A DNA stretch of 64,000 nt, taken from contig OZ244653.1 in the NCBI GenBank assembly GCA_965218795.1, positions 4,576,001 through 4,640,000 on the forward strand, written 5' to 3'. The notes below the pieces were generated by a model. It was not told where the DNA came from. It searched no databases and saw only the letters and a list, made by a program, of their open reading frames with translations. Shown here piece after piece: positions 28,405 through 50,979 of this stretch. The stretch comes from a bacterium (lineage in GTDB: Bacteria; UBA8248; JACPRG01; G963555815). Made by a program: the position numbers and the translations under genes. Position 1 is the first letter of the stretch. Every line of letters starts with the position of its first letter.

Positions 28405-28496
28405 GGTTCGATCACCCCTGACGGTCGATCATGACCTTGTGAGAGCGGTTTGGACTCACTGCAGGCCCAGCCACCCGGGGGACAACCCGACTCCGC

Positions 28497-29303: not shown

Positions 29304-29338
29304 CGGCTTCCTTTCCGGAAGGGTTCTCCCCTGAACGA

Positions 29339-30139: not shown

Positions 30140-30224
30140 TGACGAAGAAGTTGTTGAAAGACCTCATGTTCACTGGATTCGCAGCGCCCATGAGGACCCG
30201 GGGGACGCGAACCCCGGGGCCATT

Positions 30225-31103: not shown

Positions 31104-31154
31104 TCGAAACTCGGGTTCCCCCCGCCCTCCGCGCTTCCGTCCAAGGGACCGCCG

Positions 31155-35447: not shown

Positions 35448-36593
35448 TCATCTGTCAGGTGTTTCGTTCGTCATGTACGTCTCCTCCCCGTCCTTCGTGG
35501 TCTTGATCACCAGGCGCCAGAGCTCTCCGTCCTCCTCCAGAAAACCGATGGCCGACCGCGCCTTCTCGGCCGACCGAAACACCTCCCCTCGATCCAGCAC
35601 GCGCTGAACCCTCAGCCAGTCCTCCGGGCCGAAGTCCGCGAAGCGCGCGTGAGACCTCGCCGTCTCGCTCGATAGCCGCAGCGTCCTTGACCGCCCGCGG
35701 ATCGCGCCCAGAATCCTCTTGGGCACCACGGCCAACGGCCAGCTCCCGGCCTCCTTCCCGCCCAGAAAATCCGCAAGCCCCGGGTTGCCCGCGAAACTCC
35801 GGGCCGCGGCCCGGGCCAGATCCTCGGGCGCCGCGTCCATCTTCTCGATCGCCTGCTCCAGGGCCTCGCCGACCCTTCCCACACGGCCCACGTTGTGGTC
35901 CCATCCGGGATCGAGGCCCACGGGGATATGCCTCATTTCGCCGGTCCGCTTGTTCACCCATTCCCGGGTTTTGCCGGCGTTGCTCGGGACGTCCGTCACC
36001 TCGTAGCCGTACCGCTCCAGGTCGTCGTCGCCAAGCTGCTGGACGATGCACCGGCAGCCCCATCCGTTGGGCGGATAGTGGGTTTGCCAGAAGGGGTGAT
36101 CCACCGGCAGCACCGTCCCGTGCCAGCCCAGGTGCTCTTCCCGCGTCCGCTCGTCGGTCACGGCCACGTAGCGCAGATACGGAAGGTCCGCCTTGACGCG
36201 CTGGATCCGCTCCCACCGGCCCGCGCCGTAAGAGGCCCGCAGGTTGGCGTCGAAGATCGTCCGCAAACGGTGGGGGGAGCCGACTTGAACGATCCGGGTC
36301 TTTTTGGTCAGCGGGTCATATATCGGTTCACGGCCCCACCAGCCGCGCTTCACCAGCAACGGCTCGAGCTCGCTGCGGAAGGTATCAAGCGTGATCCCAT
36401 CGGATATGGCCCGGTCCACGGCCTTCCGGATGTCCGTGAGGATGTCCAGGTCCATGGCCTTGGCCACGGTGAAGGCCCGGGCGTGCAAGGCCGCGTCAGC
36501 GTCCTGCCAGGCGAACGTGATCTTGCGGCCCTTCTTGCGGAAGCGCCTCACCGCCTCAACGGGCGGGACGTTCAGGATTTCGGGGAGCGGCAT
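35448..36593 (-). CDS. Phage Mu gpF/SPP1 gp7-like (MuF) head protein with C-terminal extension (PBECR2-like nuclease?)
   Basis: AFTVAK, RLRTIFDAN, YLRYVAVTDERTREEH, FWQTHYPPNGWGCRC, GLDPGWDHNVG; about 140-aa extension ending WRLVIKTTKDGEETYM. Confidence 0.88.
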   Translation of the reverse strand: MPLPEILNVPPVEAVRRFRKKGRKITFAWQDADAALHARAFTVAKAMDLDILTDIRKAVDRAISDGITLDTFRSELEPLLVKRGWWGREPIYDPLTKKTRIVQVGSPHRLRTIFDANLRASYGAGRWERIQRVKADLPYLRYVAVTDERTREEHLGWHGTVLPVDHPFWQTHYPPNGWGCRCIVQQLGDDDLERYGYEVTDVPSNAGKTREWVNKRTGEMRHIPVGLDPGWDHNVGRVGRVGEALEQAIEKMDAAPEDLARAAARSFAGNPGLADFLGGKEAGSWPLAVVPKRILGAIRGRSRTLRLSSETARSHARFADFGPEDWLRVQRVLDRGEVFRSAEKARSAIGFLEEDGELWRLVIKTTKDGEETYMTNETPDR

Positions 36594-36621
36594 GGGTCAA
36601 TCACCACATGGATAGGGATGA

Positions 36622-36713
36622 ACATGGATAGACAGGATAGACAGGATAGACAGGATGAAAATTACAAATTTCTGTTTTTCTTTTCCCATCCTGTGCATCC
36701 TGTGCATCCATGT
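36622..36713. repeat. Inverted array of 9-bp tandem repeats (ACAGGATAG / CATCCTGTG)
   Basis: ACATGGATAGACAGGATAGACAGGATAGACAGGATG ... CATCCTGTGCATCCTGTGCATCCATGT. Confidence 0.85.
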
Positions 36714-36724
36714 CTGGTCTCCGG

Positions 36725-37546
36725 TCAGGGCTTCGCCGGGTCCCATACGATCGTCGCTATCTGCTCTTTGGTCAGCTTCGCCCGGTAGTGCTTCCGGTGG
36801 CGCTTGAGGTGAACAATTACCTTTCCGTTGATCTCAATCGGCGCGCTTTCCAGCACCGGATCGCCCCACACATGAAGCCAGCCCCACGGCGAAAGCATCA
36901 CAACCGGCTTACTACCGCCCTTGCGGTAAACAATCCCGTACTTGCTGGGCTGGCAATACACCGGTTTCCACCAGCACAGCCGCCTCTTTCGTGCAAATTC
37001 CACGGTCAGCGCGTAAAGAAGCGGTTCCTTTTCGGCTTCGGCCAGGCCGTCGTCTCCGGAGATCGCCGGTTTTCCCTCCGCGCCCTCAAGCGCCAGGTCG
37101 ATCATGTCGCCCACGGTTGTTTTGTAATACTGATTTCCGCCTTTTTTGTACCACCAGAACCGCAGGCTTCGGACCTTCGGCCCCGCCTTTCTGAGCCGGT
37201 CGCGCAGGGCGGCGGCCCCGTCGTGCTTGAGGCGCTTGCTCCACGCCTTCTTGGTCAACTCCCGGTTGAACTTTCCATTCGCCCCGAGGATAGGTATGGC
37301 GTCGGACAGGGCGGCGGAGTACAGGACGTTCCCGATCTTCCTGCAGTTCCCTCCGAAGCGGTCGAAGCGGTCATGGACCATCCACAGATCGCCGTCGGCA
37401 TTGTACTCGTACAAGTAGCCGCCGCCCGACAGGCTGGCATTCGGCTCGGGAGACCAGATCGGCAAATGGCCCTTGAACTGAAAGCCCCGGCTGAGCATGT
37501 TCCAGCGGAGGATCATATTAGAAACACCAAGTGTAGATTTTCCCAT
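36725..37546 (-). CDS. Hypothetical basic, Trp/Tyr-rich protein between portal and MuF
   Basis: GAGG RBS, ATG at 37546, 273 aa, co-oriented with the phage genes. Confidence 0.6.
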   Translation of the reverse strand: MGKSTLGVSNMILRWNMLSRGFQFKGHLPIWSPEPNASLSGGGYLYEYNADGDLWMVHDRFDRFGGNCRKIGNVLYSAALSDAIPILGANGKFNRELTKKAWSKRLKHDGAAALRDRLRKAGPKVRSLRFWWYKKGGNQYYKTTVGDMIDLALEGAEGKPAISGDDGLAEAEKEPLLYALTVEFARKRRLCWWKPVYCQPSKYGIVYRKGGSKPVVMLSPWGWLHVWGDPVLESAPIEINGKVIVHLKRHRKHYRAKLTKEQIATIVWDPAKP

Positions 37547-37563
37547 GTCAACCTCTGTCCGTT

Positions 37564-38520
37564 CTACGCTTCCCCGTCTGGATCGTCGGCGTTCTGTAGG
37601 CCAGCCCGGCCGGACAGCCAGGCGCTGAATGCGTTGGCCCGTACCCGCAGCGCCAGGGCTTCGTCGTCGAGCTGCTCCGCCAGGCCGCCGAAAGCCTCGT
37701 TGAAGTCCTCCAGGGTTTCGGCTTCGGCCGCCGCCGCAAGGATCGGCTCGATGATCGGGCCGGTCAGCTGCTCCCAATCGTTCGCCGCGTCGACCGCCGC
37801 GTCGCCAAGCGGATCGGCCGTTGTGTCGCCCTCGCGGGCCGCGCCCTGAAGGGCAGTACGCAGCGCCGGTTCTTGGTTCCCCGGCGCCGGTGGCGGATCC
37901 GGCGCCGGTTCCCATTCGCCGCCGTATACGGCCTCGACGTGCGCCTGCGTGGGCTTGAGGCCGGTCGTCTCGGAAATGATCCGCTCCCGTTCGGCCCGTT
38001 TGTCCAGGTCCTCGGGCGGTTCGGCGTCCCGCCGTATCCGGGGGATCGCCGCGCCGGGAAAATTCCACTCCGTCAGCCACCTTGAGATCGTGTGGTTCAA
38101 AGCGTCGTCCAGCATGTGGGCGTCCGCCGCGATCACCTCGTCCCGCACGTCCTTCTGGATCTCGGCCGTCCCCTTCCAGGGGCCTTGATCCGTGGTGGAG
38201 CTTTGGCCCAAAAGCGTCGTCGTAATGGCGCTGTCCAGGTACTTCACGAACACCTCGAAATCCGCGCCCGTCCTCCGGGCGGATTCCATAAGCTCGATGT
38301 CCTGCCCCTCCGGGAGCGCTACGCCGGAGCCCACCGAAAGGCCCTTGATCAGTTCCAAGAGCTTGTCAATCTCCTCCTGATTCGCGCCCTTGCGGTATGT
38401 GCCCTTGGGCGTGGGAGAACCGTACTTGTCAAGCGAAACCGCCCAAAACTTCAGGCCGTTCCGCTTTAGCCATACCGGCCAGTAGCACCAACGCGCCAGG
38501 CCGGGGCCGTGAGGGATGTC
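37564..38520 (-). pseudogene. DUF935 / Mu gp29 portal protein, 5'-truncated
   Basis: PHGPGLARWCYWPVWLKRNGLKFWAVSLDKYGSP...LLGQSSTT...VIAADA...EWNFPGA. Confidence 0.85.
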
Positions 38521-38735: not shown

Positions 38736-38790
38736 TTGACAGGGGAAATTGGGTATGTCATTTATAGATATATCATAAGGATATCTCTAT
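38736..38790 (+). promoter_or_regulatory. Putative promoter/operator of the GntR operon
   Basis: TTGACA at 38736 followed by AT-rich palindromes GATATATC and GATATC. Confidence 0.4.
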
Positions 38791-38804
38791 GATTTTCCTC
38801 TGGT

Positions 38805-39539
38805 ATGGAAGGGTCAGGTGTGTTTGCGGAAAGGCCCGAAGCCGCTGAATCCATCAAGGACAGAGTCTACGCCAGCCTCAAGCAGGACCTGATTTCGGGC
38901 GTTTTTTCTCCGGGGGAGATCCTTCAGGAGAAGGAATTGGCCCGGTCCTTCGGCGTGAGCAAGACTCCGGTTCGGGAGGCGCTTTCAGAGCTCGTCAAAG
39001 ATCGCTTTGTCAAGCTCCTGCCGCGAAAAGGCTACCTCGTCGCCCCTGTCGATCCCCAGGAGGTCGTTGAAAACCTCGAGCTTCGGGTCATTCTTGAATG
39101 CGCCGCCGTTGAATTGGCGGCCCGGCGGATTTCCGCCGAGGACCTGAACGAGTTGGAAAGCCTGATTCTCCCTCAGCCGCCCGCCGGCGATCGGTTGAAA
39201 GACAACGACCAGCTCGGAGCGTACCCCCGCACCAATATCCAGTTCCATCGAAGGCTGGCCGCCGCCTCGGGCAATCGCTCATTGGCGCGGGCGATCACGA
39301 AGGTCCTGGAGGACCTTCTCAGGGTGATTTTCATCAGCTACTCCCTGCCCGATCTGGAAGAGACCGGGAGCGATCATGTGGAACTCGTGGATGCCCTGAG
39401 GGATCGCGACGGTGATCGGGGCAGAAAAGTCATGGAGCGCCATCTCCAGGTCACGAGGCAGCGCCTGCTGGGCGCCTTGTGGGGCGGGAAGTCCCGGCGT
39501 GAGGAGGAAGACGCAGGGTTGACGGAGGCGGCTTCATGA
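38805..39539 (+). CDS. GntR (FCD) transcriptional regulator
   Basis: ELARSFGVSKTPVREAL; FH..LAAASGN. Confidence 0.93.
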   Translation: MEGSGVFAERPEAAESIKDRVYASLKQDLISGVFSPGEILQEKELARSFGVSKTPVREALSELVKDRFVKLLPRKGYLVAPVDPQEVVENLELRVILECAAVELAARRISAEDLNELESLILPQPPAGDRLKDNDQLGAYPRTNIQFHRRLAAASGNRSLARAITKVLEDLLRVIFISYSLPDLEETGSDHVELVDALRDRDGDRGRKVMERHLQVTRQRLLGALWGGKSRREEEDAGLTEAAS

Positions 39540-41335
39540 GCCGGCGGGTGACTCTCACCGTGGATGTCCTCGTCGTGGGGGCGGGTTTGGCCGGACTACG
39601 CGCGGCGGCCGAGGCCCGGCGATTCGGGGCCAAGGTCCTGTTGGTGGACAAGGGCCTCACAGGCCTTAGCGGAAACAGCGCGTTTGCCGGGGGCGGCTTC
39701 AAAACCTGTCTGCCGGGTATGGATACCCTCATCGAGAAGCAGTATCTGACCCCCGAGGGGCATTTTCAGGACACGATCCAGTACGGCGACTACATGAGCG
39801 AGCAGCCTCTGGTGGAGGCGCTGACCATCGAGGCGCCGGCGAGGGTCCTCGAGCTTGAGGACGTCGGGGTCAAAAACTTCATGTCCCTCTGTACGCAAGG
39901 ATCATCCGAGCACGGGGGCTATGACGTGACCAAGGCCTTCGCCTCCAGCATCAAGACCCAGAAAGTGAAGACGCGGGTGAACACCATCCTCATCGAGCTG
40001 CTGATGGAGGAAGGAGAGGTCGTCGGGGGTCTCTTTTTCAGCTTTTTCAACGAGAAGTTTCTTGAGATTCGGGCGAAGAGCGTCATCTTGACGACGGGGG
40101 GCGCGGGTGCATCCTTTGCCCGCAATAATGTCTCATCAGCCATCATCGGCGACGGCTACGCCCTGGCCTACGAAGCCGGAGCGGAGCTCATCGGAATGGA
40201 GTTCGTGATGTTCGATCCCTACATCCTGGATGAGCCCGGCCTGCCCATGTGGTACGTCCTCCCCTGTTTTGCAAGGTTTTACGGCAAGCTGGTCAATGCA
40301 AACGGCGAGGCGTTTCTACCCGACTATCTCAGGGTAGTGGGCAGCATGGACGATCCGTTCCCGGTCCGGTACGGGGCACTGCCCCCCGACGTTCGGGAAA
40401 CCATCTCTCGGGCCATCGCGACCGAGATTCACGAAGGGCGGGATGAGGATGGGGCGGTCTTTCTGGATTGCCGGGATGTTCCCGAGAGGTACTGGGAGGA
40501 GGACATCCCGGGCAGACACAACCGCGACGCTATCCTCCGAAAGTTTCCGATCCGCGAGAAATTGATGCGGGTGATCCCCGGCGCCATCACGAATCTGGGC
40601 GGAATTCACATCAACGATCGCTGCGAAACCAGTGTCACCGGCCTTTACGCGGCGGGAGAAGCCGCGGGTCTCGTGCACGGGGCTAGGCGCCTGGGCGGAA
40701 ACGCCCTGACCGATTGTCTCGTGTTTGGCGCGAGGGCCGGCCGACAGGCGGCGGAGCGGGCCCGGAACGGGTCGATTCGGACGGTTCCCGAAGAGCGGAT
40801 GCGGGAGTCCATCCGTGCCGTCACCCGGCTTCTGGAACGGGATTCTACGCCCGAAGGCGATCCGGATGAACTGGTGCGAGACCTGAAACGAATCGCTTGG
40901 GAAGGGATCGGCGTCATCCGGTCCGAAGACGGCCTCACCCGGTGCCTGGAAGCCCTGGAGGAGGTCAAGCTGACCCGAATGCCGAAGTTGTTCGCGCCGA
41001 GCGCCCGAAAACTTCGTGCGGCACTCGAGGCCCGATTCATGCTGATTTCGCATGAGGTGACCGCCCGGTCCTCATTGGCGCGCGCCGAAAGCCGCGGGAC
41101 GCATTACCGGGAGGACTGCCCTGAGATCGACAACGAGCGGTTCCTGAAGAATTTTGTCATCCGGAAGGGAAAGGAATACATGGAAGAGGCCGAAGTCTCC
41201 ATTCCGGTCACGCGGGTTCCGCTTCCTGCACAGCGCCATCGATCCTTTTCGGATCCGGCCGCGCAGGCCAGCCATCCCACGACCACGCGGGGCGGAGATT
41301 TGATCTGGATGAGAGAGGGAGCGCCGGTGGGATGA
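39536..41335 (+). CDS. SdhA/NadB/AprA-superfamily flavoprotein, copy 1
   Basis: GAGLAG, TTGG, GDGY, LGGI, GLYAAGEA..VHGARRLGGNAL, ESRGTHYR. Confidence 0.88.
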   Translation: MSRRVTLTVDVLVVGAGLAGLRAAAEARRFGAKVLLVDKGLTGLSGNSAFAGGGFKTCLPGMDTLIEKQYLTPEGHFQDTIQYGDYMSEQPLVEALTIEAPARVLELEDVGVKNFMSLCTQGSSEHGGYDVTKAFASSIKTQKVKTRVNTILIELLMEEGEVVGGLFFSFFNEKFLEIRAKSVILTTGGAGASFARNNVSSAIIGDGYALAYEAGAELIGMEFVMFDPYILDEPGLPMWYVLPCFARFYGKLVNANGEAFLPDYLRVVGSMDDPFPVRYGALPPDVRETISRAIATEIHEGRDEDGAVFLDCRDVPERYWEEDIPGRHNRDAILRKFPIREKLMRVIPGAITNLGGIHINDRCETSVTGLYAAGEAAGLVHGARRLGGNALTDCLVFGARAGRQAAERARNGSIRTVPEERMRESIRAVTRLLERDSTPEGDPDELVRDLKRIAWEGIGVIRSEDGLTRCLEALEEVKLTRMPKLFAPSARKLRAALEARFMLISHEVTARSSLARAESRGTHYREDCPEIDNERFLKNFVIRKGKEYMEEAEVSIPVTRVPLPAQRHRSFSDPAAQASHPTTTRGGDLIWMREGAPVG

Positions 41336-41622
41336 GCACGACTGGCGCGACCGGAACCAAGCGAAGGCCGGACCGGTCCGGATGGAAGCCGCCGCCCTAC
41401 GTTTCGTCGCCGGCGCTCGAAATTGATATCGACAAAGACACCTGCACCGGGTGCGACCTGTGCGTCATCGCCTGCCCGACCGATTGCCTTGAGCTGGACA
41501 CGGAGGTCCAGGTGGCTTACGTGGTGAGGTTGGACGCCTGTATCATCTGTTACAGTTGTGAAGAGGTCTGCAAGCCGGACTGCCTTCACGTACATCTCGA
41601 TACGCGGGGGAGAGAACCGTGA
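41332..41622 (+). CDS. 2[4Fe-4S] ferredoxin (AprB/AsfB-like)
   Basis: CTGCDLCVIACP and CIICYSCEEVC. Confidence 0.9.
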   Translation: MSTTGATGTKRRPDRSGWKPPPYVSSPALEIDIDKDTCTGCDLCVIACPTDCLELDTEVQVAYVVRLDACIICYSCEEVCKPDCLHVHLDTRGREP

Positions 41623-42482
41623 TGGATCAGGACGATCCGGAAGCGAAACCGGTTCAAATTCGGACGACCCAGCCTTCGGCCTGGGTCCGGATGATCTATC
41701 CGGTGGTGGCCGTCATCCTCGCCATCGCGCTCTGGGCGTTGGCGGTCCACTGGTTCAAGGTGCCGGAGTATATTCTGCCGGCCCCGAAGGCGGTCTTCCA
41801 TGCACTGGTCGAAAAGTACATGATCCTTCTCCGGCACAGCGGCGCAACGGTGAATGCGACCCTTGGCGGATTGGTGCTGAGCGTCGTATTCGGCGTGCCG
41901 TTCGCGATGCTGCTGGTCTGGTCGAAGACGCTCGAGCGGGCGATTATGCCCCTGCTGGTTTTCTCGCAATGTTTCCCGAAGATCGCTATTGGTCCTCTGC
42001 TGATTGTGTGGTTCGGTTGGGGGATTTTACCGAAGGTCTTGATTAGCTTCATCATCGCTTTCTTTCCCATCGTCATCCAAACGGCCCTGGGGCTGAAATC
42101 GGTGGAAAACGACGAGCTGGACCTGATTCGGATCATGTCGCCGAGCGCCTTGCAGGTCTTTACGAAGATCCGGGTTCCCAATGCGCTCCCTCATTTCTTC
42201 GGCGGGCTCAAGGTGGCGGTCACGCTCTCGCTCATTGGGGCCATCGTCGGGGAGTTCATCGGCTCTGACCGCGGCCTCGGATACCTCCTGCAATACGCGA
42301 ACACGGAACTCGATACGGAACTTCTGTTCGCGACGCTCGTTCTCCTGATGGTGGTCGGCGGAATCCTCTTCCTGGCGGTTACGAGGCTGGAGAAGTGGCT
42401 GTTGCCCTGGCACGTAGCGGTCCGTGACGAAAAGCAAGGAGGAGTTCGAATTTCCGAGGAGGCTGTAGAGAGCACAGCCTGA
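41619..42482 (+). CDS. NitT/TauT-family ABC permease
   Basis: PKIAIGPLL, AFFPIV, PNALPHFFGGLK, GEFIGSDRGLG. Confidence 0.92.
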   Translation: MMDQDDPEAKPVQIRTTQPSAWVRMIYPVVAVILAIALWALAVHWFKVPEYILPAPKAVFHALVEKYMILLRHSGATVNATLGGLVLSVVFGVPFAMLLVWSKTLERAIMPLLVFSQCFPKIAIGPLLIVWFGWGILPKVLISFIIAFFPIVIQTALGLKSVENDELDLIRIMSPSALQVFTKIRVPNALPHFFGGLKVAVTLSLIGAIVGEFIGSDRGLGYLLQYANTELDTELLFATLVLLMVVGGILFLAVTRLEKWLLPWHVAVRDEKQGGVRISEEAVESTA

Positions 42483-42537
42483 TTGCAGAACCCCGGAGCA
42501 TTGGGTTCCGGGGGATCCAAAAAGGAGGGGCGGAGCA

Positions 42538-43542
42538 ATGAAAGCACGGATGTGTCGGAAGCGGTTTATAAAGGCCCAAATGGCGATTCTTGCGGTGTTA
42601 TTCGTCTTGGCCGTCGGGTTGCCCGCCCCGGGCGGCGCGGCCGATGAGGTATCCCTGAGGCTGGACTGGAAGATCTACGGGACCCACGCGCCTTTCTTCA
42701 TGGCGGCGAAAAAGGGGTTCTACCGTGCGGGGGGGATGAAGGTCAAGATCGGGGAAGGCACCGGTTCGAGCAGTGTGGTCAAGCTGATGGGGGCCAAGAA
42801 CGACACCTTTGCCTTTGCGGCCGGCGTGAGCACCCTCCAGGGGGTCACGAAGGGAATCCCCGTCAAGTCGGTCTTCGGGATCATGCAGAAAAGTCCGCTG
42901 GCCATCATGTCGCTGACCAAGTCGAACCTCAAGACACCGAAGGATTTGCTGGGAAAGTCAGTCAGCACGAGCGGGAAGGGATCGGGGACGGCCCTCTTTG
43001 CCGCGTTCCTGAAAACCAATCAGGTGAATCCCTGCAAGGTGACACTGGCCGCCCTGGGACGGTCCGGTAAGTCGAGGGCCCTGCTCGCCGGAAAGGTGGC
43101 CGGGATGATCGGCTACAGCGTCACCGAAGTTCCCAGCCTCGAAGGAAAGGGGGCGAGGGTGCGCGCAATGCATCTCGGTGACTGGGGAATGAACGTTGTA
43201 GCGAACGGAATCATCATTAACACCGAGACCGAGAAAACCAACCCCAAGCTCATCCGTCGGTTTCTGAAGGCGGTGAAGAAGGGGATCGTCTACGCCAAGG
43301 CCCATCCGAAAGAGTCGGCGGATTTTTTGAAAGAGCGATTCCCCCACAAGAGGCGGGCCGTCCTGGGCAAGGAGCTCAAGTGGACGTTCAGCCTCCTGGT
43401 CAGCAAGGCCACTGAGGGTAAGCCGTTGGGATGGCAAGCCGATTCCGACTGGGCCAGGACCCAAAGTGTTCTTAAGAAAAACAACCTGATCAAGAAGACC
43501 ATGCCTCTCAGGAATTACTTCACGAACGCCTACATTCCCTGA
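42538..43542 (+). CDS. NMT1/THI5-SsuA-like ABC substrate-binding protein
   Basis: LRLDW...HAPFFMAAKKGFY, EGTGS, FTNAY. Confidence 0.9.
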   Translation: MKARMCRKRFIKAQMAILAVLFVLAVGLPAPGGAADEVSLRLDWKIYGTHAPFFMAAKKGFYRAGGMKVKIGEGTGSSSVVKLMGAKNDTFAFAAGVSTLQGVTKGIPVKSVFGIMQKSPLAIMSLTKSNLKTPKDLLGKSVSTSGKGSGTALFAAFLKTNQVNPCKVTLAALGRSGKSRALLAGKVAGMIGYSVTEVPSLEGKGARVRAMHLGDWGMNVVANGIIINTETEKTNPKLIRRFLKAVKKGIVYAKAHPKESADFLKERFPHKRRAVLGKELKWTFSLLVSKATEGKPLGWQADSDWARTQSVLKKNNLIKKTMPLRNYFTNAYIP

Positions 43543-43562
43543 GCGGGCGACGTATCGGATCG

Positions 43563-43598
43563 CGCGGGGAGAGAAGGGCCGATCCTTCTCTCCCCGCA
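43563..43598. other. Stem-loop after the SBP gene (mRNA stabiliser or attenuator)
   Basis: GCGGGGAGAGAAGG...CCTTCTCTCCCCGC. Confidence 0.55.
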
Positions 43599-43610
43599 GA
43601 TGGAATCGGG

Positions 43611-44522
43611 ATGACGCCAATGCCCGGTGAGTCTTCCGGAAAAAATCAGGCGGATTCGGCCATCGAGTTCTCCGGCCTGCGCATGGATTACCTCGACGGT
43701 GGAGAAGCGCTTTGCGCCCTGAAGGACATCGACTTTCAAGCGTCGGAGGGTGAGTTTGTTTCCTTTGTGGGGCCGAGCGGCTGCGGGAAGACCACGCTGC
43801 TGAAGATCACGGCCGGGCTCCTGTCGCCCACGGCTGGTGATGTCCGCATCCAGGGACACAGCGTGCGCGGTCCCACGCAAGATGTCGGCTTCGTCTTTCA
43901 AAGCGCGGTCCTGCTGAGGTGGCGGACCATCCTGCGCAACATCCTGTTGCAGGTGGAGGTCCGGGGGTTGGAGAAGCAGGAATTCACCCGTCGCGCCCGG
44001 GAGCTTCTCGAATTGGTCGGACTGGAAGGATTCGAGGACAAATATCCTTATCAGTTGTCCGGGGGAATGCAGCAGCGAGCGGCTATCTGCAGAGCCCTCA
44101 TCCACGATCCTCCGCTTTTGCTCATGGATGAGCCGTTCGGCGCACTGGACGCCTTGACGCGGGAGCAGATGCACCTGGAGCTGCAGGACATCTGGATGCA
44201 AAGCGGGAAGACCGTCCTGTTCGTCACCCACAGTATTCCCGAATCCATCTTTCTATCCGACCGAGTGGTGGTGTTCTCGGCCCGCCCGGGGCGCATCCGG
44301 GAAGTGGTCGAGGTGGATCTGCCACGCCCGCGGGAGGTGGGTATCGAGGCGGATGTCCGGTTCGGCCGGCTGATCAACCATATCCGCGGGTTGCTCGAGA
44401 CGACTCGTCCGAGGCGCCGCCCCCAGCTGGGCAAGGCCGTTCTCTCCGAATCCCGTACTGATGCGGAGGCACCCGATTCGGACGAATCTCCCCTGCGAAT
44501 CGTTCGCGGAGGCGAGCCATGA
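43611..44522 (+). CDS. NitT/TauT-family ABC ATP-binding protein
   Basis: GPSGCGKT, LSGGMQQR, MDEPFGALDALTR. Confidence 0.93.
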   Translation: MTPMPGESSGKNQADSAIEFSGLRMDYLDGGEALCALKDIDFQASEGEFVSFVGPSGCGKTTLLKITAGLLSPTAGDVRIQGHSVRGPTQDVGFVFQSAVLLRWRTILRNILLQVEVRGLEKQEFTRRARELLELVGLEGFEDKYPYQLSGGMQQRAAICRALIHDPPLLLMDEPFGALDALTREQMHLELQDIWMQSGKTVLFVTHSIPESIFLSDRVVVFSARPGRIREVVEVDLPRPREVGIEADVRFGRLINHIRGLLETTRPRRRPQLGKAVLSESRTDAEAPDSDESPLRIVRGGEP

Positions 44523-45028
44523 GTCGGAAATCCGGGCCGGTTCGAATTTCCGCGGCGCTGCGCGACTCGGGCGTACGGTTCATCGTGGGACTGCCCGAGA
44601 CCTGGCTGGCCCCCCTCCTGCGCCACCTGAAAGACCATCCCGATTTCGTGGATGTCCCCGTGGCCAGTGAGGATGAGGGCGTTGGCGTCTGCGCCGGCCT
44701 GGAGCTGGGAGGACAGGGCGCGGCACTGTTGATGCAGAACACGGGACTGCTCGCCTCGGCCAACGCCCTGACAACCCTCCCGCTCAAGCACCGGATTCCT
44801 CTTTTGATGCTGATCAGTCATCGGGGCGCCCCCGGGATGCCGGATGACCGGGACTACCACCTATTGGAGGGAGAGGTGACGCGTCCCGTGCTGGACGCGC
44901 TTCGGATCCCCGCATTTGAGGTTCAGCGGCCGGAGGATGCTGAAAAAATCGGAGCGGCCCGGGAGCGGGCCGAGCTCGGGAAGCAGCCGGTGGCGGTGCT
45001 CCTGGCGCGGGAGGCCTTGGTTCCGTGA
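44519..45028 (+). CDS. Sulfopyruvate/phosphonopyruvate decarboxylase alpha subunit (ComD-like)
   Basis: EDEGVGVCAG, MQNTGL..SANAL, LISHRG. Confidence 0.8.
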   Translation: MSRKSGPVRISAALRDSGVRFIVGLPETWLAPLLRHLKDHPDFVDVPVASEDEGVGVCAGLELGGQGAALLMQNTGLLASANALTTLPLKHRIPLLMLISHRGAPGMPDDRDYHLLEGEVTRPVLDALRIPAFEVQRPEDAEKIGAARERAELGKQPVAVLLAREALVP

Positions 45029-45600
45029 GCTCCGGGATGAAGCGCATGGATTGCCTGGCCGCGCTTGCCGAGCACGTGAGCGACGAGCTCGTGGTGGTCG
45101 CCGTGGGCGGACTGATTGACGAATGGCACCACCTTCGTCCGAGCGATTTGAATTACTACTCGGGCGGGATGGGTCTGGCCTCTTCCATCGGTCTGGGGCT
45201 GAGTCTGGCGCTCCCTGAGCGGAGGGTCATTATTCTGGACGGCGACGGCGCGCTCTTGATGAATCTGGGCTCCCTGACGACGGCGGGTCACCAGCGTCCC
45301 CGGAACCTCCTGCACTTGGTGTTCAACAATGGTACGTATGAATCATCCGGAGGATTCGCGCTGCCGGGAGCGGACGGCCTCGGGTTTGATGCTTTCGCGC
45401 GCGCGGCGGGGATTGAGGATGCGCGTGAGGTGACGGACCTTCAGGAATGGCGCGAAATGCTGCCGGGCCTGCTGAGCGCGCCGGGTCATGTCGTGCTCGA
45501 CCTGAAGGTTGGGCCGGGTGACCCGGTTCCGTCCATGACGGAGGACAAACTGGAGCGCCGATTCCGGTTTCAGCGGGCGCTGATGGAGGCGGCGCGGTAA
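45025..45600 (+). CDS. Sulfopyruvate/phosphonopyruvate decarboxylase beta subunit (ComE-like)
   Basis: GMGLASSIGLG, DGDGALLMNLGSL, NNGTYESSGG (TPP motif). Confidence 0.82.
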   Translation: MSSGMKRMDCLAALAEHVSDELVVVAVGGLIDEWHHLRPSDLNYYSGGMGLASSIGLGLSLALPERRVIILDGDGALLMNLGSLTTAGHQRPRNLLHLVFNNGTYESSGGFALPGADGLGFDAFARAAGIEDAREVTDLQEWREMLPGLLSAPGHVVLDLKVGPGDPVPSMTEDKLERRFRFQRALMEAAR

Positions 45601-45645
45601 CCGATATCCCCATCCGCCGAATGGGCCAAGGGATTCATTGAGCCG

Positions 45646-47421
45646 ATGAAAAGGCCGTGGGTTCAGCGAGAGACGGATGTTCTGGTGATCGGGACCGGTC
45701 TGGCCGGCCTGCGGGCGGCCATCGAGGCGCGGCGGTTTGGCCAGCGGGTGCTCCTGATCGACAAAGCCCTGATCGGCATCAACAACAATACGGCCATGGC
45801 CGGCGGCGGCTTCAAGGCGGCGCTCCCGAACTTTCTCGACACGAGCGTCGAAAAACAGTACGACACTCCGGATGAACACTTCCACGACACCGTCGAATAC
45901 GGAGAGTTCCTCGGCGACCAGGCCTTGGTCGAAATTCTGGCGATCGAGGCTCCCGGCAGAATTTTGGAGCTTCAGGAATTCGATATCCCCCACTATGAGG
46001 CGCTCTGCACCTACGGTCTGCCCAAGCCGATTGAATTGGCCGACGGCTCCACGAGCGTCGATGCCAACCCCTCCCGCGGGGGGCAAGTCGTGACCAAAGG
46101 GCTCGCTGAGGAGTGTAAACGCCTTGGGGTCCGCATGATGCCGGGGTGCGTTCTTCTGGACCTCCTGGTTGGGAAGGAGGGCGTGACGGGGGCGCTGCTG
46201 TATCGGATCTATCAGGGGGACTTTATCGTTTGCCGCGCCGCGTCAACGATTCTCGCCACCGGGGGGGCGGGGGAGCTGTACCGGATCAATTACACCGCCA
46301 ATGTCACGACGGGCGACGGGTACGCGGCCGCCTACCGGGCGGGCGCCGAGATGGTCGACATGTCGTTCGCCATGTTCTCCCCCCACACGATGATGGAGCC
46401 CGGCCTTCCAATGTGGTATCTCCTCCCCTGCACGGCCAGGCTTCACGCGGTGTACCGAAACGGGAGGGGCGAGGCGTTTCTGGATAGTTTCCTCACACCG
46501 ACAGGGGAACCGACCATTCATTTCCAGAGACGCTATGGGGAGCTTTCAACCGATGTGAGGGAGATCATCTCGCGGGCCATCGCGATTGAGATCTTCGAAG
46601 GCCGGGGCGACGGGGATTCCATCTGGCTCGATTTCCGCGAGGTTCCCGAGGAGCTTTGGGACGCCGACCTTCCCGGGCAGTACGATCTGCGGTGTCTGCT
46701 GAGGGGGTTCGACTGGAAAAACAAGCCCATCCGAATCTCCCCGGGTGCGATTACGCATCTGGGGGGAATCGGAATCAACGAATGGAGTGAGACCAATCTC
46801 CGCGGGCTGTACGCCGCCGGGGAAGCGGCGGCTCCAGTTCACGGCGCGCGGCGCAGGGGTGGGAACGCTTTTTCGGAGTGCCTTGTGTTCGGAACCCGTG
46901 CGGGAAGGGCGGCCGCAGAGCGCGCGCGCGACAACCCACGTCTCATCTCCAGTCCGGACTGGGGCCGCGGGGCGGTGGAGCAGAGGATTGCGGAGGTCGG
47001 GAGGTGGGACCGGACGCCCGATCACGAAGGCGACCCTGCCCGGATCCGCGCGGACCTGCAGCATACGATGTGGGAAAATGCGGGCCCGCTCCGCTCTGGA
47101 GAGCGGTTGGACAAGTGCCTGGCCGATTTGGAAGAACTGCGCCGGGATGGTCTTCCCCGTCTATCGGCTCGGACTCCCTTTGAAGTCAAAGCGGCGGTCG
47201 AGGCGGTGAATCTGGTCGAGGTGGGGGAGATCGTGACCCGCTCCGCCCGGTTTCGGACGGAAAGCCGGGGATGTCATTTCCGCACGGATTATCCGAAGAC
47301 GGATCAGGAGCGTTGGATCTGCCACGACGTGATCGTTCGGGGACGGGAGCCCTTCAAGAAAGAAGTTGACGTGACACGGATTCCTCTTCCCGTCGCAGCC
47401 GGGAGCACTGTGGGTGACTAG
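45646..47421 (+). CDS. SdhA/NadB/AprA-superfamily flavoprotein, copy 2
   Basis: GTGLAG, ATGG, TGDGY, HLGGI, HGARRRGGNAF, ESRGCHFR; paralogue of 39536-41335. Confidence 0.88.
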   Translation: MKRPWVQRETDVLVIGTGLAGLRAAIEARRFGQRVLLIDKALIGINNNTAMAGGGFKAALPNFLDTSVEKQYDTPDEHFHDTVEYGEFLGDQALVEILAIEAPGRILELQEFDIPHYEALCTYGLPKPIELADGSTSVDANPSRGGQVVTKGLAEECKRLGVRMMPGCVLLDLLVGKEGVTGALLYRIYQGDFIVCRAASTILATGGAGELYRINYTANVTTGDGYAAAYRAGAEMVDMSFAMFSPHTMMEPGLPMWYLLPCTARLHAVYRNGRGEAFLDSFLTPTGEPTIHFQRRYGELSTDVREIISRAIAIEIFEGRGDGDSIWLDFREVPEELWDADLPGQYDLRCLLRGFDWKNKPIRISPGAITHLGGIGINEWSETNLRGLYAAGEAAAPVHGARRRGGNAFSECLVFGTRAGRAAAERARDNPRLISSPDWGRGAVEQRIAEVGRWDRTPDHEGDPARIRADLQHTMWENAGPLRSGERLDKCLADLEELRRDGLPRLSARTPFEVKAAVEAVNLVEVGEIVTRSARFRTESRGCHFRTDYPKTDQERWICHDVIVRGREPFKKEVDVTRIPLPVAAGSTVGD

Positions 47422-47644
47422 GTCGGTTCACATCAGCGTTCTCGAGACCTGCGTGGATTGCGCCCTGTGTGTCCTGGCCTGTCCCGTCGATTGTCTCGGT
47501 TTTGATCAGAGGGAAAAGCGGCTTTTGGTATTAGCGGAAGACCCCTGCATCGTCTGCCTGAATTGCGAGGACGTTTGCCCGGTGGACGCCATCCGGATCG
47601 GTCTGGATGCCTATTTGCCGGAGTCGCGCCCCGTCGAAGTTTGA
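47414..47644 (+). CDS. 2[4Fe-4S] ferredoxin, copy 2
   Basis: CVDCALCVLACP and CIVCLNCEDVCP. Confidence 0.88.
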   Translation: MTRSVHISVLETCVDCALCVLACPVDCLGFDQREKRLLVLAEDPCIVCLNCEDVCPVDAIRIGLDAYLPESRPVEV

Positions 47645-47741: not shown

Positions 47742-48737
47742 TCAAAGCTTCAGAAGCCTCGCGGCGTTGCCCCCCAGGATATTGTCCCGCGCCGGTCCCT
47801 CCGGGACGACCCGCTTGACTTGCTCTGCACAGCCGAAATCCGCCATGTCGAAGGGGTAGTCGCTCCCCAGGTAGACATGATCCTCACCGACGGTCTCGAT
47901 CAAGAACTTCAGGGCAGGGTCCCAATGGGTGATGTTGTCGAACCAGACCTGTTCCAGGTAGGCGCTCGGTTCCTTCGGCGCGAGCTTTCGCGCTTCCGGA
48001 CGCTCTCGGTAGCCGTGGTCCAACCGCCCGCGGATGAAGGGGTACTGGCCGCCCGCGTGGACCAGGCAGACCTTGAGCTTGGGGTGCCGCTCGAACACGC
48101 CCCCCAGCAGCATTCGCCCGATGGCGATGGTGGTATCGAGCGGGTTCCCAATCAGATTCGTCAGATAGTAATCCTGGTAACGCTCATGTCCGGCGACGTC
48201 GTGCGGATGGAGGAACAGCGGGACATCCAGCTCTTCCAGCTTATCGTAGAAGGGCTCATAAGCGGGGTGATCCAGATCCCTGCCGCCGTAATTGGTTTGA
48301 ATCATCGTTCCTTTGTGACCCAAGGTCTGTACCGCGTATTCCAGCTCGGCAATTCCCATGTTGACATCCTGCAGGGGAATCGTCGCAAATGCCCGGAACC
48401 GGTCCGGGTGCCGGGACTCCATCTCCGACATGGCCTCGTTTTGGATGCGCGAGAGGCGGGCGGCGTCTTCGCCAACGGCAAACGCGTGGTAGGACAGGGG
48501 CGAGGCCGCGAGGACGGACAGGTCGATGCCCATCCGATCCATATCGGTGAGCTTGATCTTGACATCCATCAGGCCCGGTTTGAATTCGGCCGATTTCTCG
48601 CGGTTGACCGCTCTCGATTCCTCCCCCTGAAAATCGACTCCGGCGCCCGTCGGATAGCGGGACTTGATCTCGGCCGCCAATGATTCCGCTTCCGCTACGA
48701 GAATATGAGAGTGCGCATCTATCACCGGTTGGCTCAT
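47742..48737 (-). CDS. Amidohydro_2 family protein (ACMSD-like decarboxylase)
   Basis: IDAHSH, FLHP, GNPLDTT, HAGG, GSDYPFDM. Confidence 0.88.
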   Translation of the reverse strand: MSQPVIDAHSHILVAEAESLAAEIKSRYPTGAGVDFQGEESRAVNREKSAEFKPGLMDVKIKLTDMDRMGIDLSVLAASPLSYHAFAVGEDAARLSRIQNEAMSEMESRHPDRFRAFATIPLQDVNMGIAELEYAVQTLGHKGTMIQTNYGGRDLDHPAYEPFYDKLEELDVPLFLHPHDVAGHERYQDYYLTNLIGNPLDTTIAIGRMLLGGVFERHPKLKVCLVHAGGQYPFIRGRLDHGYRERPEARKLAPKEPSAYLEQVWFDNITHWDPALKFLIETVGEDHVYLGSDYPFDMADFGCAEQVKRVVPEGPARDNILGGNAARLLKL

Positions 48738-49172
48738 CTGGGTTCCTCTCTGACCTTGGCCTGTAGAACCGTTTCTCGGCAATCGCCCGAGGGCGGTTAC
48801 GCCGGGGATCGGTTGACGGAAAGATTCGTTGAAGGCCCCTTATGGTCATCGGGTTGAAGAACATGATCCAGTGTCGTCCGGAACCACTCGTCTCTTGTCT
48901 TTGCGTTCCGCAGCTTTCGCGTTGAGGGACACTCTGCCGGGAGCGTCGTGATGGGGCCTGCGGGCTGCCAAAGGAATCGAACGGAAATTATATACAATAG
49001 TGCCCAAGGACGCTAAGCCTTCTTGGGCTTCGGGGTTTCCTGCCGCGGTGCGCGCCGCCCCTGACAGCAGCTTGCGCCAGAGCGGTCGGCGCGGTCGGTA
49101 TCCTCAGGTCTTCAGTCTCCTCCGTTTCCTCGGTGAGGTGCCGACAAGACGGCCATGCTGGAGAGAAGAGGC

Positions 49173-50094: not shown

Positions 50095-50979
50095 ATGGAC
50101 CTCGTTTCTCTGATTGACAGATTCCCTTGTGACGACAAGTGCAGGGATTTCCTTGAAGATATCCGCTGGCCTCATGGACCAGCCTGCACCCGTTGCGGCG
50201 ATATGAGCGTCTTCGAAATTGACCGGCGCAATCAGTGGGAATGCAGATCATGCCGCTACCAGTTCAGTGTCACGTCCGGGACCATCATGCACGATTCCCA
50301 TCTTCCGCTCCGCAAGTGGTTTCTCGCCATCTACATGATGTGCGAATCCAAGAAGGGCATTTCGGCCAATCAGGTCAAGCGGACCCTGGGGATAACGTAC
50401 AAGACGGCATGGTATCTGTGCCATCGAATCAGGGAAGCGATGGGAAACGAACCCTTTGAGGGTCCGACATTGGTTGGTGTGGTCGAAGTCGATGAAACGC
50501 TTGTGGGCGGCAAGAAAAAGGGCAAGGGCCGCGCGTACAAGGGAAACAAGGTATGGGTCGCCGGAGCCATCCAGCGCGGCGGCAAAGTCCGCGTTGAGCG
50601 AATCTCGGACGTGAAGCGGCACACCATCCACGGCTTCATCCAGCGTGCCGTGAAGGACGAAGCCGAGGCCATCTATACGGACGAACTGAAATCCTACCTG
50701 GGGATTGCCGACCACAACACGCGCCACGAGACGGTCAATCACTCGGAAGAACAGTGGGTCATCGGAGACGTTCACACAAACTCCATTGAAGGGGTCTGGA
50801 GCCTGTTCAAGCGGTCTCTGATGGGTGCGTTCCACAAGATGAGCGCAAAGCATATGGACCGTTACCTCGAAGAGCTTGAATGGCGGTTCAACAACCGGGA
50901 TAACCCCAACATCTTCAACGAGACCCTCCGCCGGATCATGAACACCGAGCCCCTCGAATACAGGAAGTTGGTCGCATAA
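50095..50979 (+). CDS. IS1595-family transposase
   Basis: Zn ribbon CTRC..CRSC, VEVDET, IYTDE, HTNSIEGVWS, YLEELEWRFN. Confidence 0.95.
   Translation: MDLVSLIDRFPCDDKCRDFLEDIRWPHGPACTRCGDMSVFEIDRRNQWECRSCRYQFSVTSGTIMHDSHLPLRKWFLAIYMMCESKKGISANQVKRTLGITYKTAWYLCHRIREAMGNEPFEGPTLVGVVEVDETLVGGKKKGKGRAYKGNKVWVAGAIQRGGKVRVERISDVKRHTIHGFIQRAVKDEAEAIYTDELKSYLGIADHNTRHETVNHSEEQWVIGDVHTNSIEGVWSLFKRSLMGAFHKMSAKHMDRYLEELEWRFNNRDNPNIFNETLRRIMNTEPLEYRKLVA

Follow-up and report, generated by a model that had tools for sequence, protein, structure and literature searches.

What is the role of an operon that encodes two flavoproteins of the SdhA superfamily, each accompanied by its own small ferredoxin, together with an importer, a regulator and a split thiamine diphosphate (ThDP) enzyme? 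The question is raised by positions 38805-47644 (+ strand) of the window, i.e. the whole stretch of 64,000 nucleotides (nt) of contig OZ244653.1 that was analysed. According to the list of open reading frames (ORFs) and the Pfam domain search, this region consists of ten tightly packed ORFs on the + strand. An earlier note, made from the letters of the window, had proposed that they form a pathway for an organosulfonate or phosphonate. We consider it about an even chance (a probability of roughly 0.5) that the operon serves the oxidative catabolism of an imported carboxylic acid via a 2-oxo or 2-imino acid, the class of the substrate being left open. The features of the region, with the flavoproteins designated FpA1 and FpA2 and the ferredoxins Fd1 and Fd2, are listed below (aa, amino acids; FAD, flavin adenine dinucleotide; ABC, ATP-binding cassette).

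38736..38793, + strand: candidate promoter/operator, TTGACA at 38736-38741 and then an AT-rich palindromic block upstream of the regulator gene
38805..39539, + strand: GntR + FCD regulator, 244 aa (Pfam GntR 69.3 bits, FCD 90.8 bits)
39536..41335, + strand: FpA1, flavoprotein with FAD_binding_2 and Succ_DH_flav_C domains, 599 aa (Pfam, residue mapping, tree, fold)
41332..41622, + strand: Fd1, 2x[4Fe-4S] ferredoxin, 96 aa, with an N-terminal extension of about 30 aa (two CxxCxxCxxxC motifs)
41619..42482, + strand: permease of the ABC importer (BPD_transp_1, 103.7 bits)
42538..43542, + strand: NMT1/THI5-type periplasmic binding protein, 334 aa, with signal peptide (NMT1, 163.5 bits)
43611..44522, + strand: ATPase of the ABC importer (ABC_tran, 116 bits)
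44519..45028, + strand: PYR-domain subunit of the ThDP enzyme, ComD/RhiE-like, 169 aa (TPP_enzyme_N)
45025..45600, + strand: PP-domain subunit of the ThDP enzyme, ComE/RhiF-like, 191 aa (TPP_enzyme_C)
45646..47421, + strand: FpA2, flavoprotein with FAD_binding_2 and Succ_DH_flav_C domains, 591 aa (Pfam, alignments, tree)
47414..47644, + strand: Fd2, 2x[4Fe-4S] ferredoxin, 76 aa, presumed subunit of FpA2 (motifs, Cys alignment, adjacency)

Flavoproteins and their ferredoxin partners

Start and stop codons overlap by 4 nt at five junctions (GntR/FpA1, FpA1/Fd1, Fd1/permease, ATPase/ComD and ComD/ComE) and FpA2 overlaps Fd2 by 8 nt; according to the ORF coordinates, the three intergenic gaps measure 45-68 nt. 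No SdhB, SdhC or SdhD domain was detected by Pfam in the ten ORFs of the block. The overlaps and domains agree with the earlier description of two SdhA-superfamily flavoproteins, each coupled to a small 2x[4Fe-4S] ferredoxin and unaccompanied by SdhB/C/D. FpA1 and FpA2 are 46% identical, i.e. paralogous as had been stated, and the operon continues to count as uncharacterised.

In HMMER alignments to E. coli FrdA and SdhA, the histidine that binds FAD covalently (FrdA H44) corresponds to Asn in both flavoproteins. His232 of FrdA (QFHP) is replaced by Asp in FpA1 (MFDP) and by Ser in FpA2 (MFSP), and His355 (HYTMGG) by Ile in both (ITNLGG in FpA1, ITHLGG in FpA2), so that positions H44/H232/H355 read N/D/I in FpA1 and N/S/I in FpA2. 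These three losses had been pointed out previously, and the alignments and translations concur on them. An additional observation is that the catalytic Arg (DVRE, FrdA R287) and the clamp Arg (HGA(R)RLGGN, FrdA R390) are retained in both proteins; all 116 aligned rows of the family have the clamp Arg, and 114 of them have the catalytic Arg. Both FpA1 and FpA2 carry a further Arg before the clamp Arg (HGARRLGGN or HGARRRGGN), and in both the Sdh/Frd loop TEGCRGEGG is swapped for an aromatic, hydrophobic GLPMWY.LPC.

The best NCBIfam match of both flavoproteins is the TfrA model, on which FpA1 and FpA2 score 321.5 and 330 bits, respectively, against a cut-off of 718. The corresponding scores are 256.1 and 295.3 bits on the sdhA_frdA model (TIGR01812, cut-off 567.3) and 194.7 and 236.5 bits on the nadB model (TIGR00551, cut-off 452.75). 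On the aprA model (TIGR02061, cut-off 641.75 bits), FpA1 gave no match at E <=0.001 and FpA2 reached 21.5 bits. FpA1 ranks last of the eight SdhA-like paralogues of the genome on the sdhA model as well as on the nadB model. The likely SdhA of the organism (510.7 bits on sdhA_frdA, with an SdhB-like gene next to it) is encoded about 400 kb from the operon.

In a quick maximum-likelihood tree of 56 rows, with support from the Shimodaira-Hasegawa-like approximate likelihood ratio test (SH-aLRT), FpA1 and FpA2 fell into distinct subclades of a 29-row clade (SH-aLRT 100), itself nested in a 43-row clade (SH-aLRT 98). Outside the latter were E. coli FrdA, SdhA and NadB, the other six SdhA-like paralogues of the genome and two plasmid-borne SdhA-like proteins; the AsfA homologue of Cupriavidus formed a long branch, also outside the clade. 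Clustering with NadB or Frd, which the earlier note had named beforehand as speaking against its proposal, was not found in this quick tree. The scores below cut-off, the lost histidines and the separate clade bear out its view that the flavoproteins are not succinate dehydrogenase (SDH), fumarate reductase (FRD) or L-aspartate oxidase (NadB). Judged by their sequences, FpA1 and FpA2 belong to a well-separated clade of the SdhA superfamily without the dicarboxylate-binding residues. No characterised member of this clade was found in the literature, and the names of the relatives, among the 120 matches listed, hold nothing beyond generic source names. The AlphaFold model of FpA1 (predicted local distance difference test, pLDDT, 67.2; predicted template modelling score, pTM, 0.73) is closest in fold to FrdA and to Sdh1 of M. 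smegmatis (TMq 0.75-0.76), and 8a8o_B ranks 16th (TMq 0.67), AprA 1jnr 38th and NadB 42nd or lower.

Fd1 contains two CxxCxxCxxxC motifs, Fd2 is a second 2x[4Fe-4S] ferredoxin, and all eight cluster Cys are invariant in the six Fd1 and Fd2 sequences aligned (6/6). A model of the FpA1-Fd1 complex reached a median ipSAE of 0.66 (runs 0.69, 0.66 and 0.63), compared with 0.00 for the best of three controls, with a partner pLDDT of at least 78 and a contact agreement between runs of at least 84%. Of 80 solved complexes, 58 attained the score mark applied, as did 2 of 110 mismatched pairs; since own alignments were used, these counts are only approximately valid here. In the model, the interface comprises both cluster motifs of Fd1 and residues 40-50 of FpA1, the stretch surrounding the site at which the covalent His of complex II enzymes is missing. 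This supports docking of Fd1 beside the FAD of FpA1, and fits an alpha-beta enzyme in which the ferredoxin would relay electrons to or from the flavin. Together with the gene overlaps, the modelled complex upholds the two-subunit layout of flavoprotein and 2x[4Fe-4S] ferredoxin that had been noted before. FpA2 and Fd2 are also adjacent in two further genomes of the phylum (G004 and G040, see below).

Conservation, surroundings and expression of the operon

The source genome (G000) is 98.9% complete and consists of a single contig. The block is rare: matches at E <=1e-100 are present in four of the 51 species genomes of the phylum, namely G000, G004, G006 and G040, and none was found at this threshold in G001, a genome of the same genus (93% complete). 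G004 and G006 have the same gene order, with protein identities of 69-86% and flanks unlike those of G000, the G006 contig stopping inside FpA2; in G040, FpA2 and Fd2 lie at the very start of a 3.3-kb contig. A scan of genome contigs returned only two loci, those of G004 and G006. The neighbourhood survey thus finds the ten-gene block kept as a unit between different flanks in G004 and G006, and such recurrence of a gene set with different flanks indicates that the association is not due to chance.

The promoter region is conserved as well. In G000, the AT-rich block has the core AGATATATCA..TATCT, with inverted repeats at 38763-38793 (sequence and repeat search), and the TTGACA together with the AGATATATCA..TATCT core is kept upstream of the G004 and G006 operons, while the flanking sequence diverges. 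The TTGACA and the palindrome would therefore represent promoter and operator. The regulator combines an N-terminal GntR winged helix-turn-helix domain with a C-terminal FCD domain, both over the Pfam cut-offs, which places it in the FadR/FCD subfamily; it reaches no NCBIfam equivalog, the best being phnR_burk (91.7 vs 271.5 bits).

Orthologues of FpA1 form nine clusters at identities of at least 69%, the remainder of the 120 matches listed being at most 50% identical. The longest contigs of FpA1 and FpA2 clusters are of equal size in four cases (165145, 37200, 10981 and 37403), as are those of ComE-like and FpA1 clusters in two (12517 and 37403), which suggests further co-location of FpA1, FpA2 and ComE-like genes. 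In G000, Mu-like phage genes (Mu F, portal) flank the block on one side and an IS1595 transposase flanks it on the other; in G004 it is followed by a DDE transposase. The operon is rare, conserved as a unit and probably mobile.

As for the surroundings in the window, the operon is immediately preceded by genes for a Mu F-like protein (35448-36593) and for part of a portal protein (region 35448-38358, - strand). The portal ORF (37564-38358, - strand) matches positions 192-335 only of the 336-position profile and seems truncated or frameshifted; these Mu-like genes may be a prophage remnant. Further upstream on the - strand (27097-32312) are genes for a luciferase-like monooxygenase (31155-32312), an EamA transporter (30225-31103) and an M20 peptidase (27097-28404). 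Downstream of the operon are the IS1595-family transposase (50095-50979, + strand) and an N6/N4 DNA methylase (52713-53618, - strand), and GC content drops from about 0.62 to 0.48-0.55 past position 49000. The gene immediately following the block, an Amidohydro_2 gene (47742-48782, - strand) resembling 2-amino-3-carboxymuconate-6-semialdehyde decarboxylase (ACMSD; E 7e-54 to ACMSD structures), was considered as a member of the system and rejected: it is convergent, and neither G004 nor G040 has a counterpart behind the block. About 24 such paralogues, this one included, exist in G000.

Elsewhere in G000, the gene combination of the operon does not recur, i.e. it occurs once. The other SdhA-like and ComDE-like loci, tried as a clue to the substrate, were discarded, their contexts being unrelated. 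Several families are expanded (about 54 NMT1-type binding proteins, 12 split ComDE-like enzymes, about 24 Amidohydro_2 proteins and eight SdhA-like flavoproteins), which suggests a broad repertoire for small organic acids. Outside the window, at G000:C1:4727880-4731928 (- strand), two tandem SdhA-like paralogues that are mutual closest relatives (SH-aLRT 100) adjoin an Amidohydro_3-like gene, and no ferredoxin was seen beside them.

No close homologue was found in cultured replicons: the plasmid collection gave 502 matching records, all below 60% identity, with the best rows at 27-31%. Two of the plasmids, pMRAD01 of Methylobacterium radiotolerans (L024) and one of Haloarcula sp. GH36 (L025), carry a distant SdhA-like gene with an SdhB-like subunit, along with two-subunit UxaA-family hydrolases, an Ldh-family oxidoreductase and a TauE/SafE sulfite exporter; L024 additionally encodes a full-length ThDP protein and fumarate-hydratase subunits. 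Such a set of genes, common to a bacterium and an archaeon, looks sulfonate-linked; in the tree, the flavoproteins of the two plasmids pair as sisters (SH-aLRT 100). A metagenome scan with a 31-sequence alignment was also set aside, because its patterns (AGLRAA[IAT]EA and [VLI]HG[AS][RG]R[LR]GGN) lacked specificity. Relatives are encoded in 440 of 599 stretches, and none of the 80 retained exceeds 36% identity, which marks them as ordinary SdhA-like genes. Look-alikes in the protein atlas belong to generic 'FAD-binding protein' clusters only.

A search of sequencing runs found parts of the operon in 20 of the 24 rows listed, from eight studies. One study contributed two RNA-seq libraries, with the label sponge metagenome, whose short contigs fall with 0-1 mismatch on the genes for the binding protein, the ATPase, FpA2 and Fd2; in a further run, presumably of RNA, the genes for the binding protein, the ATPase, ComD, ComE and FpA2 are covered. 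We regard these contigs as a weak hint of transcription of the operon; parts lacking such cover are uninformative.

Substrate, reaction and alternative explanations

The identity of the substrate depends chiefly on the ThDP enzyme and the importer, and for both of them the names given previously proved too specific. As to 'ComDE', the ComD-like subunit scores 110.3 bits against a cut-off of 147.95 (TIGR03845) and the ComE-like subunit 119.5 against 221.5 (TIGR03846). On the Ppd model (TIGR03297, cut-off 312.5 bits) the halves reach 84.1 and 122.7 bits (82.5 and 121.1 in the genome search). The pair is one of 12 ComDE-like loci in the genome, which score 86-141 bits on the ComE model, none of them over 221.5, a value exceeded in 2 of 14 control genomes; the operon copy ranks fifth of the 12 on the ComE model and first on the Ppd model (121.1 bits). 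The closest PDB matches are RhiE for the PYR half (9iz3_A, E 1.4e-14) and RhiF for the PP half (9iz3_B, E 4.9e-21). Hallmarks of ThDP enzymes are a Glu of the PYR domain and a GDG...NN motif for diphosphate and Mg. The xEDx Glu of the ComD-like subunit aligns with the Glu of RhiE, and the ComE-like subunit keeps the GDG...NN motif (GDGALLMN...VFNN); the cofactor motifs thus appear intact, as in ThDP enzymes generally. Metagenomic orthologues of the ComE-like subunit form 12 clusters at 58-78% identity, with the next relatives at most 50% identical, inside a family of at least 1350 proteins (E <=1e-20).

Substrates of related two-gene enzymes vary. RhiEF is a split phosphonopyruvate decarboxylase (PMC12141560). 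LumK and LumL, a pair of co-expressed ThDP-binding proteins, assemble into a 1:1 complex that decarboxylates a quinoxaline carboxylic acid, and the paper describing them cites those on RhiEF and ComDE (PMC12746152). If LumK/LumL belong to this enzyme type, as the citations suggest, then the type is not confined to sulfopyruvate and phosphonopyruvate.

The importer, which we take to be of the NitT/TauT family, had been called sulfonate-type. None of its three parts reaches a taurine, sulfonate, nitrate or Sao cut-off of NCBIfam. The best models for the permease are SaoP, TauC and SsuC, all below cut-off (TauC 88 vs 342), and the ATPase scores 230 vs 360 bits on SaoA and 223.9 vs 357 bits on TauB. 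The binding protein, whose hydrophobic N-terminus ends in GGA/ADE as read from the sequence, exceeds the Pfam NMT1 cut-off (163.5 vs 20.5) and stays below that of SsuA_fam (TIGR01728, 65.5 vs 163.5). Its solved relatives are 4nmy, THI5 and 3ix1, a ThiY-type binder of N-formyl-4-amino-5-aminomethyl-2-methylpyrimidine (FAMP). With about 54 paralogous NMT1-type binding proteins in the genome (crude gene calls, tblastn list), the fold says little about the ligand, and the sulfonate designation is not supported.

The mechanism that we favour is as follows. The GntR/FCD regulator would bind the conserved palindrome at its own promoter and be released by the substrate or an intermediate. The compound would be imported by the ABC system with its NMT1-type periplasmic binding protein, the domains of which are all present. 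In the cytoplasm, two paralogous FpA-Fd heterodimers, each consisting of an SdhA-like subunit with non-covalent FAD and a dedicated 2x[4Fe-4S] ferredoxin docked beside the flavin, would oxidise a C-H bond adjacent to the carboxylate. The residues that would hold a second carboxylate, as in succinate, fumarate or aspartate, have been exchanged, so that the substrate should not be a 1,4-dicarboxylate. Both flavoenzymes would most likely converge on a single 2-oxo or 2-imino acid; they may take two stereoisomers, or the 2-hydroxy and 2-amino forms, or alternatively act before and after decarboxylation. The split ComDE/RhiEF-type ThDP enzyme would then carry out a non-oxidative decarboxylation to an aldehyde or imine, from which general metabolism could continue. 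Electrons would leave through the ferredoxin subunits to an acceptor encoded outside the operon, and the organism does possess a haem-copper oxidase (COX1, 510 bits). From these parts we infer the direction of the reaction, the order of the steps and the class of the substrate.

Proteins of the SdhA superfamily are usually read as SDH, FRD or NadB, and the clade of FpA1 and FpA2 has no assigned function. In the copies examined, its flavoprotein adjoins a small ferredoxin rather than SdhB. Here, a single and probably mobile unit brings two such enzymes together with an importer, a regulator and a ThDP decarboxylase, which makes the operon a compact system for giving the clade a first function. 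Conversely, labels such as 'sulfopyruvate decarboxylase' or 'sulfonate ABC transporter', attached to sub-threshold members of huge families, do not amount to evidence of sulfonate metabolism.

Several observations weigh against oxidative catabolism. No enzyme of the operon exceeds any curated family cut-off (NCBIfam), and the conserved block contains no aldehyde dehydrogenase or other downstream enzyme (Pfam, comparison with G004 and G006). The FpA1 model is weakest around the flavin loops, leaving the geometry of the pocket unreadable, and the high score of FpA1-Fd1, obtained with small alignments of our own, may mirror likeness to solved AprAB-type complexes. The neighbourhood evidence comes from three to four related genomes. 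The contigs from RNA libraries possibly represent carried-over DNA, and cover just 19 nt of FpA1. Finally, 2x[4Fe-4S] ferredoxins are often of low potential and would be poor acceptors for C-C or C-N oxidation, which makes a reductive direction possible.

Of the alternatives, catabolism of a C3 organosulfonate or phosphonate, as envisaged in the earlier note, survives best, although we consider it unlikely. Sulfolactate or cysteate (or phosphonolactate or phosphonoalanine) would be imported and funnelled by the flavoproteins into sulfopyruvate or phosphonopyruvate, followed by ComDE/Ppd-like decarboxylation and release of sulfite or phosphate, possibly with flavin chemistry. The closest characterised relatives of the ThDP enzyme, RhiEF and ComDE, do act on phosphonopyruvate and sulfopyruvate, and the operon copy tops the 12 paralogues on the Ppd model (121.1 bits). 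The importer belongs to a family containing taurine and sulfonate systems, the layout of flavoprotein and small 2x[4Fe-4S] protein recurs in AprAB, methanogen 3'-phosphoadenosine 5'-phosphosulfate (PAPS) reductase and AsfAB, and the extra Arg of the pocket could hold a sulfonate or phosphonate group. The RNA libraries with operon fragments are labelled sponge metagenome, and sponges are a sulfonate-rich habitat. However, the ComD-like, ComE-like and Ppd scores of the halves are all below cut-off (0 of 12 paralogous pairs over it, 2 of 14 controls over it). Neither sulfoacetaldehyde acetyltransferase (Xsc; best 338.4 vs 676.4 bits) nor phosphonatase (best 33.6 vs 220 bits) is found above cut-off in the 98.9%-complete, single-contig genome. 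Among the ten genes of the block there is no match to a sulfite exporter or sulfite dehydrogenase family (Pfam, NCBIfam), whereas the sulfonate-looking plasmid clusters L024 and L025 carry TauE. Moreover, the regulator is of the GntR/FCD type, whereas sulfonate-sulfur regulons are known to use LysR-type regulators; the AprA model is unmatched, AsfA is remote and the binding protein fits NMT1 far better than SsuA_fam. What is left of the sulfonate or phosphonate substrate, and of the desulfonation proposed along with it, is a resemblance at the family level.

A shade more doubtful is the catabolism of an N-heterocyclic or aromatic carboxylate. A heterocyclic acid taken up by the NMT1/THI5-type protein would be oxidised or reduced by the flavoproteins at C-N or C-C bonds of the ring that adjoin the carboxylate; from the resulting cyclic 2-imino acid, the split ThDP enzyme would remove the ring carboxylate in the manner of LumK/LumL. 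The decarboxylation of a quinoxaline carboxylic acid by the 1:1 LumK/LumL complex provides the precedent (PMC12746152). It is a single one, and LumK/LumL are likened to the operon enzyme by description. Solved structures related to the binding protein include those of the FAMP binder (3ix1) and THI5, a point weakened by the roughly 54 NMT1-type proteins of the genome, which make the fold little guide to the ligand. The aromatic, hydrophobic GLPMWY.LPC loop would suit a ring, and where His stood there are Asp/Tyr in FpA1 and Ser/His in FpA2, replacements reminiscent of the ring-binding residues of urocanate reductase. On the other hand, the conserved block has no ring-cleavage or amidase gene, and the adjacent ACMSD-like gene is not kept in G004 and G040.

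The direction could also be the reverse, with reduced ferredoxins passing electrons via FAD to a C=C or C=N bond beside the carboxylate, as in fumarate or urocanate reductase, and the operon serving either as the reductive arm of a degradative pathway or as a sink for electrons. The typically low potential of 2x[4Fe-4S] ferredoxins would favour this, as would the reductase TfrA being the top NCBIfam match of both flavoproteins (321.5 and 330 bits), though at less than half of the 718-bit cut-off. The wider clade takes in proteins of metagenome-assembled genomes named Bathyarchaeia and Chloroflexota, and Thermodesulfobacteriota is the commonest phylum in the nearest look-alike cluster of a language-model search. 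Yet the organism has a haem-copper oxidase, the donor for the ferredoxins is not encoded in the operon, and a ThDP decarboxylase requires a 2-oxo acid, which oxidation would supply more simply; we therefore regard reduction as quite improbable. Still less credible is that the FpA-Fd pairs represent a new AprAB-like class of flavoenzyme which, with the ThDP enzyme, removes sulfite, phosphite or phosphate from a C3 sulfonate or phosphonate independently of Xsc, where removal could proceed via a flavin-N5 adduct or by elimination from a ThDP-bound enamine. That FpA1 and FpA2 are ordinary SDH, FRD or L-aspartate oxidase paralogues can practically be dismissed: they do come closest to FrdA and SdhA in fold and in sequence as a whole, and some paralogue might serve as NadB since no G000 gene exceeds the nadB cut-off (best 276.5 vs 452.75 bits, single genome search), but they have neither the covalent His nor the two substrate His, FpA1 comes last of eight paralogues on the sdhA and nadB models, the clade is separate (SH-aLRT 98-100) and the partner is a ferredoxin, not SdhB.

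Comparison with known systems

The nearest characterised relatives of FpA1 and FpA2 are SdhA and FrdA (E. coli FrdA 1kf6 and SdhA 1nek, M. smegmatis Sdh1 7d6v), with which they share the two Pfam domains, both Arg, the best PDB sequence matches (E 1e-49 to 1e-57) and the best folds. They differ from them in having neither the covalent-FAD His nor the substrate His, in the replacement of the TEGCRGEGG loop, in their separate clade below the sdhA_frdA cut-off, and in their partners, which are 2x[4Fe-4S] ferredoxins of 76-96 aa instead of SdhB, in an operon without a membrane anchor.

The importer has the domain families and subunit set of TauABC, SsuABC and ThiXYZ; in contrast to SsuA and TauA, its binding protein has THI5/ThiY-like solved relatives. 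Similarly, ComDE (sulfopyruvate), RhiEF (phosphonopyruvate) and LumK/LumL (quinoxaline carboxylate) are all two-gene enzymes, and the operon enzyme resembles the ComDE/RhiEF type in its overlapping PYR and PP genes, the lack of a middle domain and its intact motifs. It differs from ComDE and Ppd in lying below all curated cut-offs as one of 12 paralogous pairs, and from the RhiEF and ComDE systems in that no phosphoenolpyruvate mutase or sulfolactate genes occur in the block.

AsfAB of arylsulfonate-utilising bacteria and AprAB, to which the flavoprotein/ferredoxin pairs had been likened, resemble them in layout only. In Cupriavidus metallidurans CH34, the gene products Rmet_4334/5 are named AsfA/AsfB, a reductase-ferredoxin pair with a proposed electron chain (PMC2864759). 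On the megaplasmid of this strain, a 549-aa flavoprotein ORF overlaps a 111-aa 2x[4Fe-4S] ferredoxin ORF by 4 nt; going by their position in the unannotated record, these presumably correspond to Rmet_4334/5. As in the operon, a flavoprotein gene overlaps a small ferredoxin gene by 4 nt, and an ABC permease gene is nearby. AsfA is, however, 27% identical to FpA1 with 20% gaps (76.6 bits, vs about 171 bits for E. coli FrdA); its match to FpA2 (60.5 bits) is limited to the N-terminal 236 residues. AsfA lacks the HGARRLGGN motif and forms the long branch outside the clade; AsfB is 35% identical to Fd1 over 57 residues. As judged by pairwise similarity and the tree, AsfAB and the pairs of the operon have their layout in common and are not orthologous.

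For AprAB, too, the likeness is confined to the layout. The aprA model is unmatched by FpA1 and gives 21.5 bits for FpA2 (cut-off 641.75), Fd1 scores 29.7 vs 135.65 bits on the aprB model (TIGR02060), and the operon has no adenylyl-sulfate context. The position of FrdA His355, Ile in FpA1 and FpA2, is presumably that of the catalytic His of AprA. In the fold alignment, AprA and PAPS reductase are about 20-21% identical to FpA1. The PAPS reductase of Methanothermococcus thermolithotrophicus (8a8o) is described as an alpha2-beta2 enzyme resembling adenosine 5'-phosphosulfate reductase, whose alpha subunit is of the fumarate-reductase family with non-covalent FAD and whose beta subunit is ferredoxin-like with two [4Fe-4S] clusters (PMC10322725). 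AprAB and this enzyme thus combine an FAD-bearing alpha subunit with a 2x[4Fe-4S] beta subunit, as the pairs of the operon are predicted to do, in which Fd1 is modelled beside the flavin of FpA1, and PAPS reductase is the closest solved analogue of the FpA-Fd layout.

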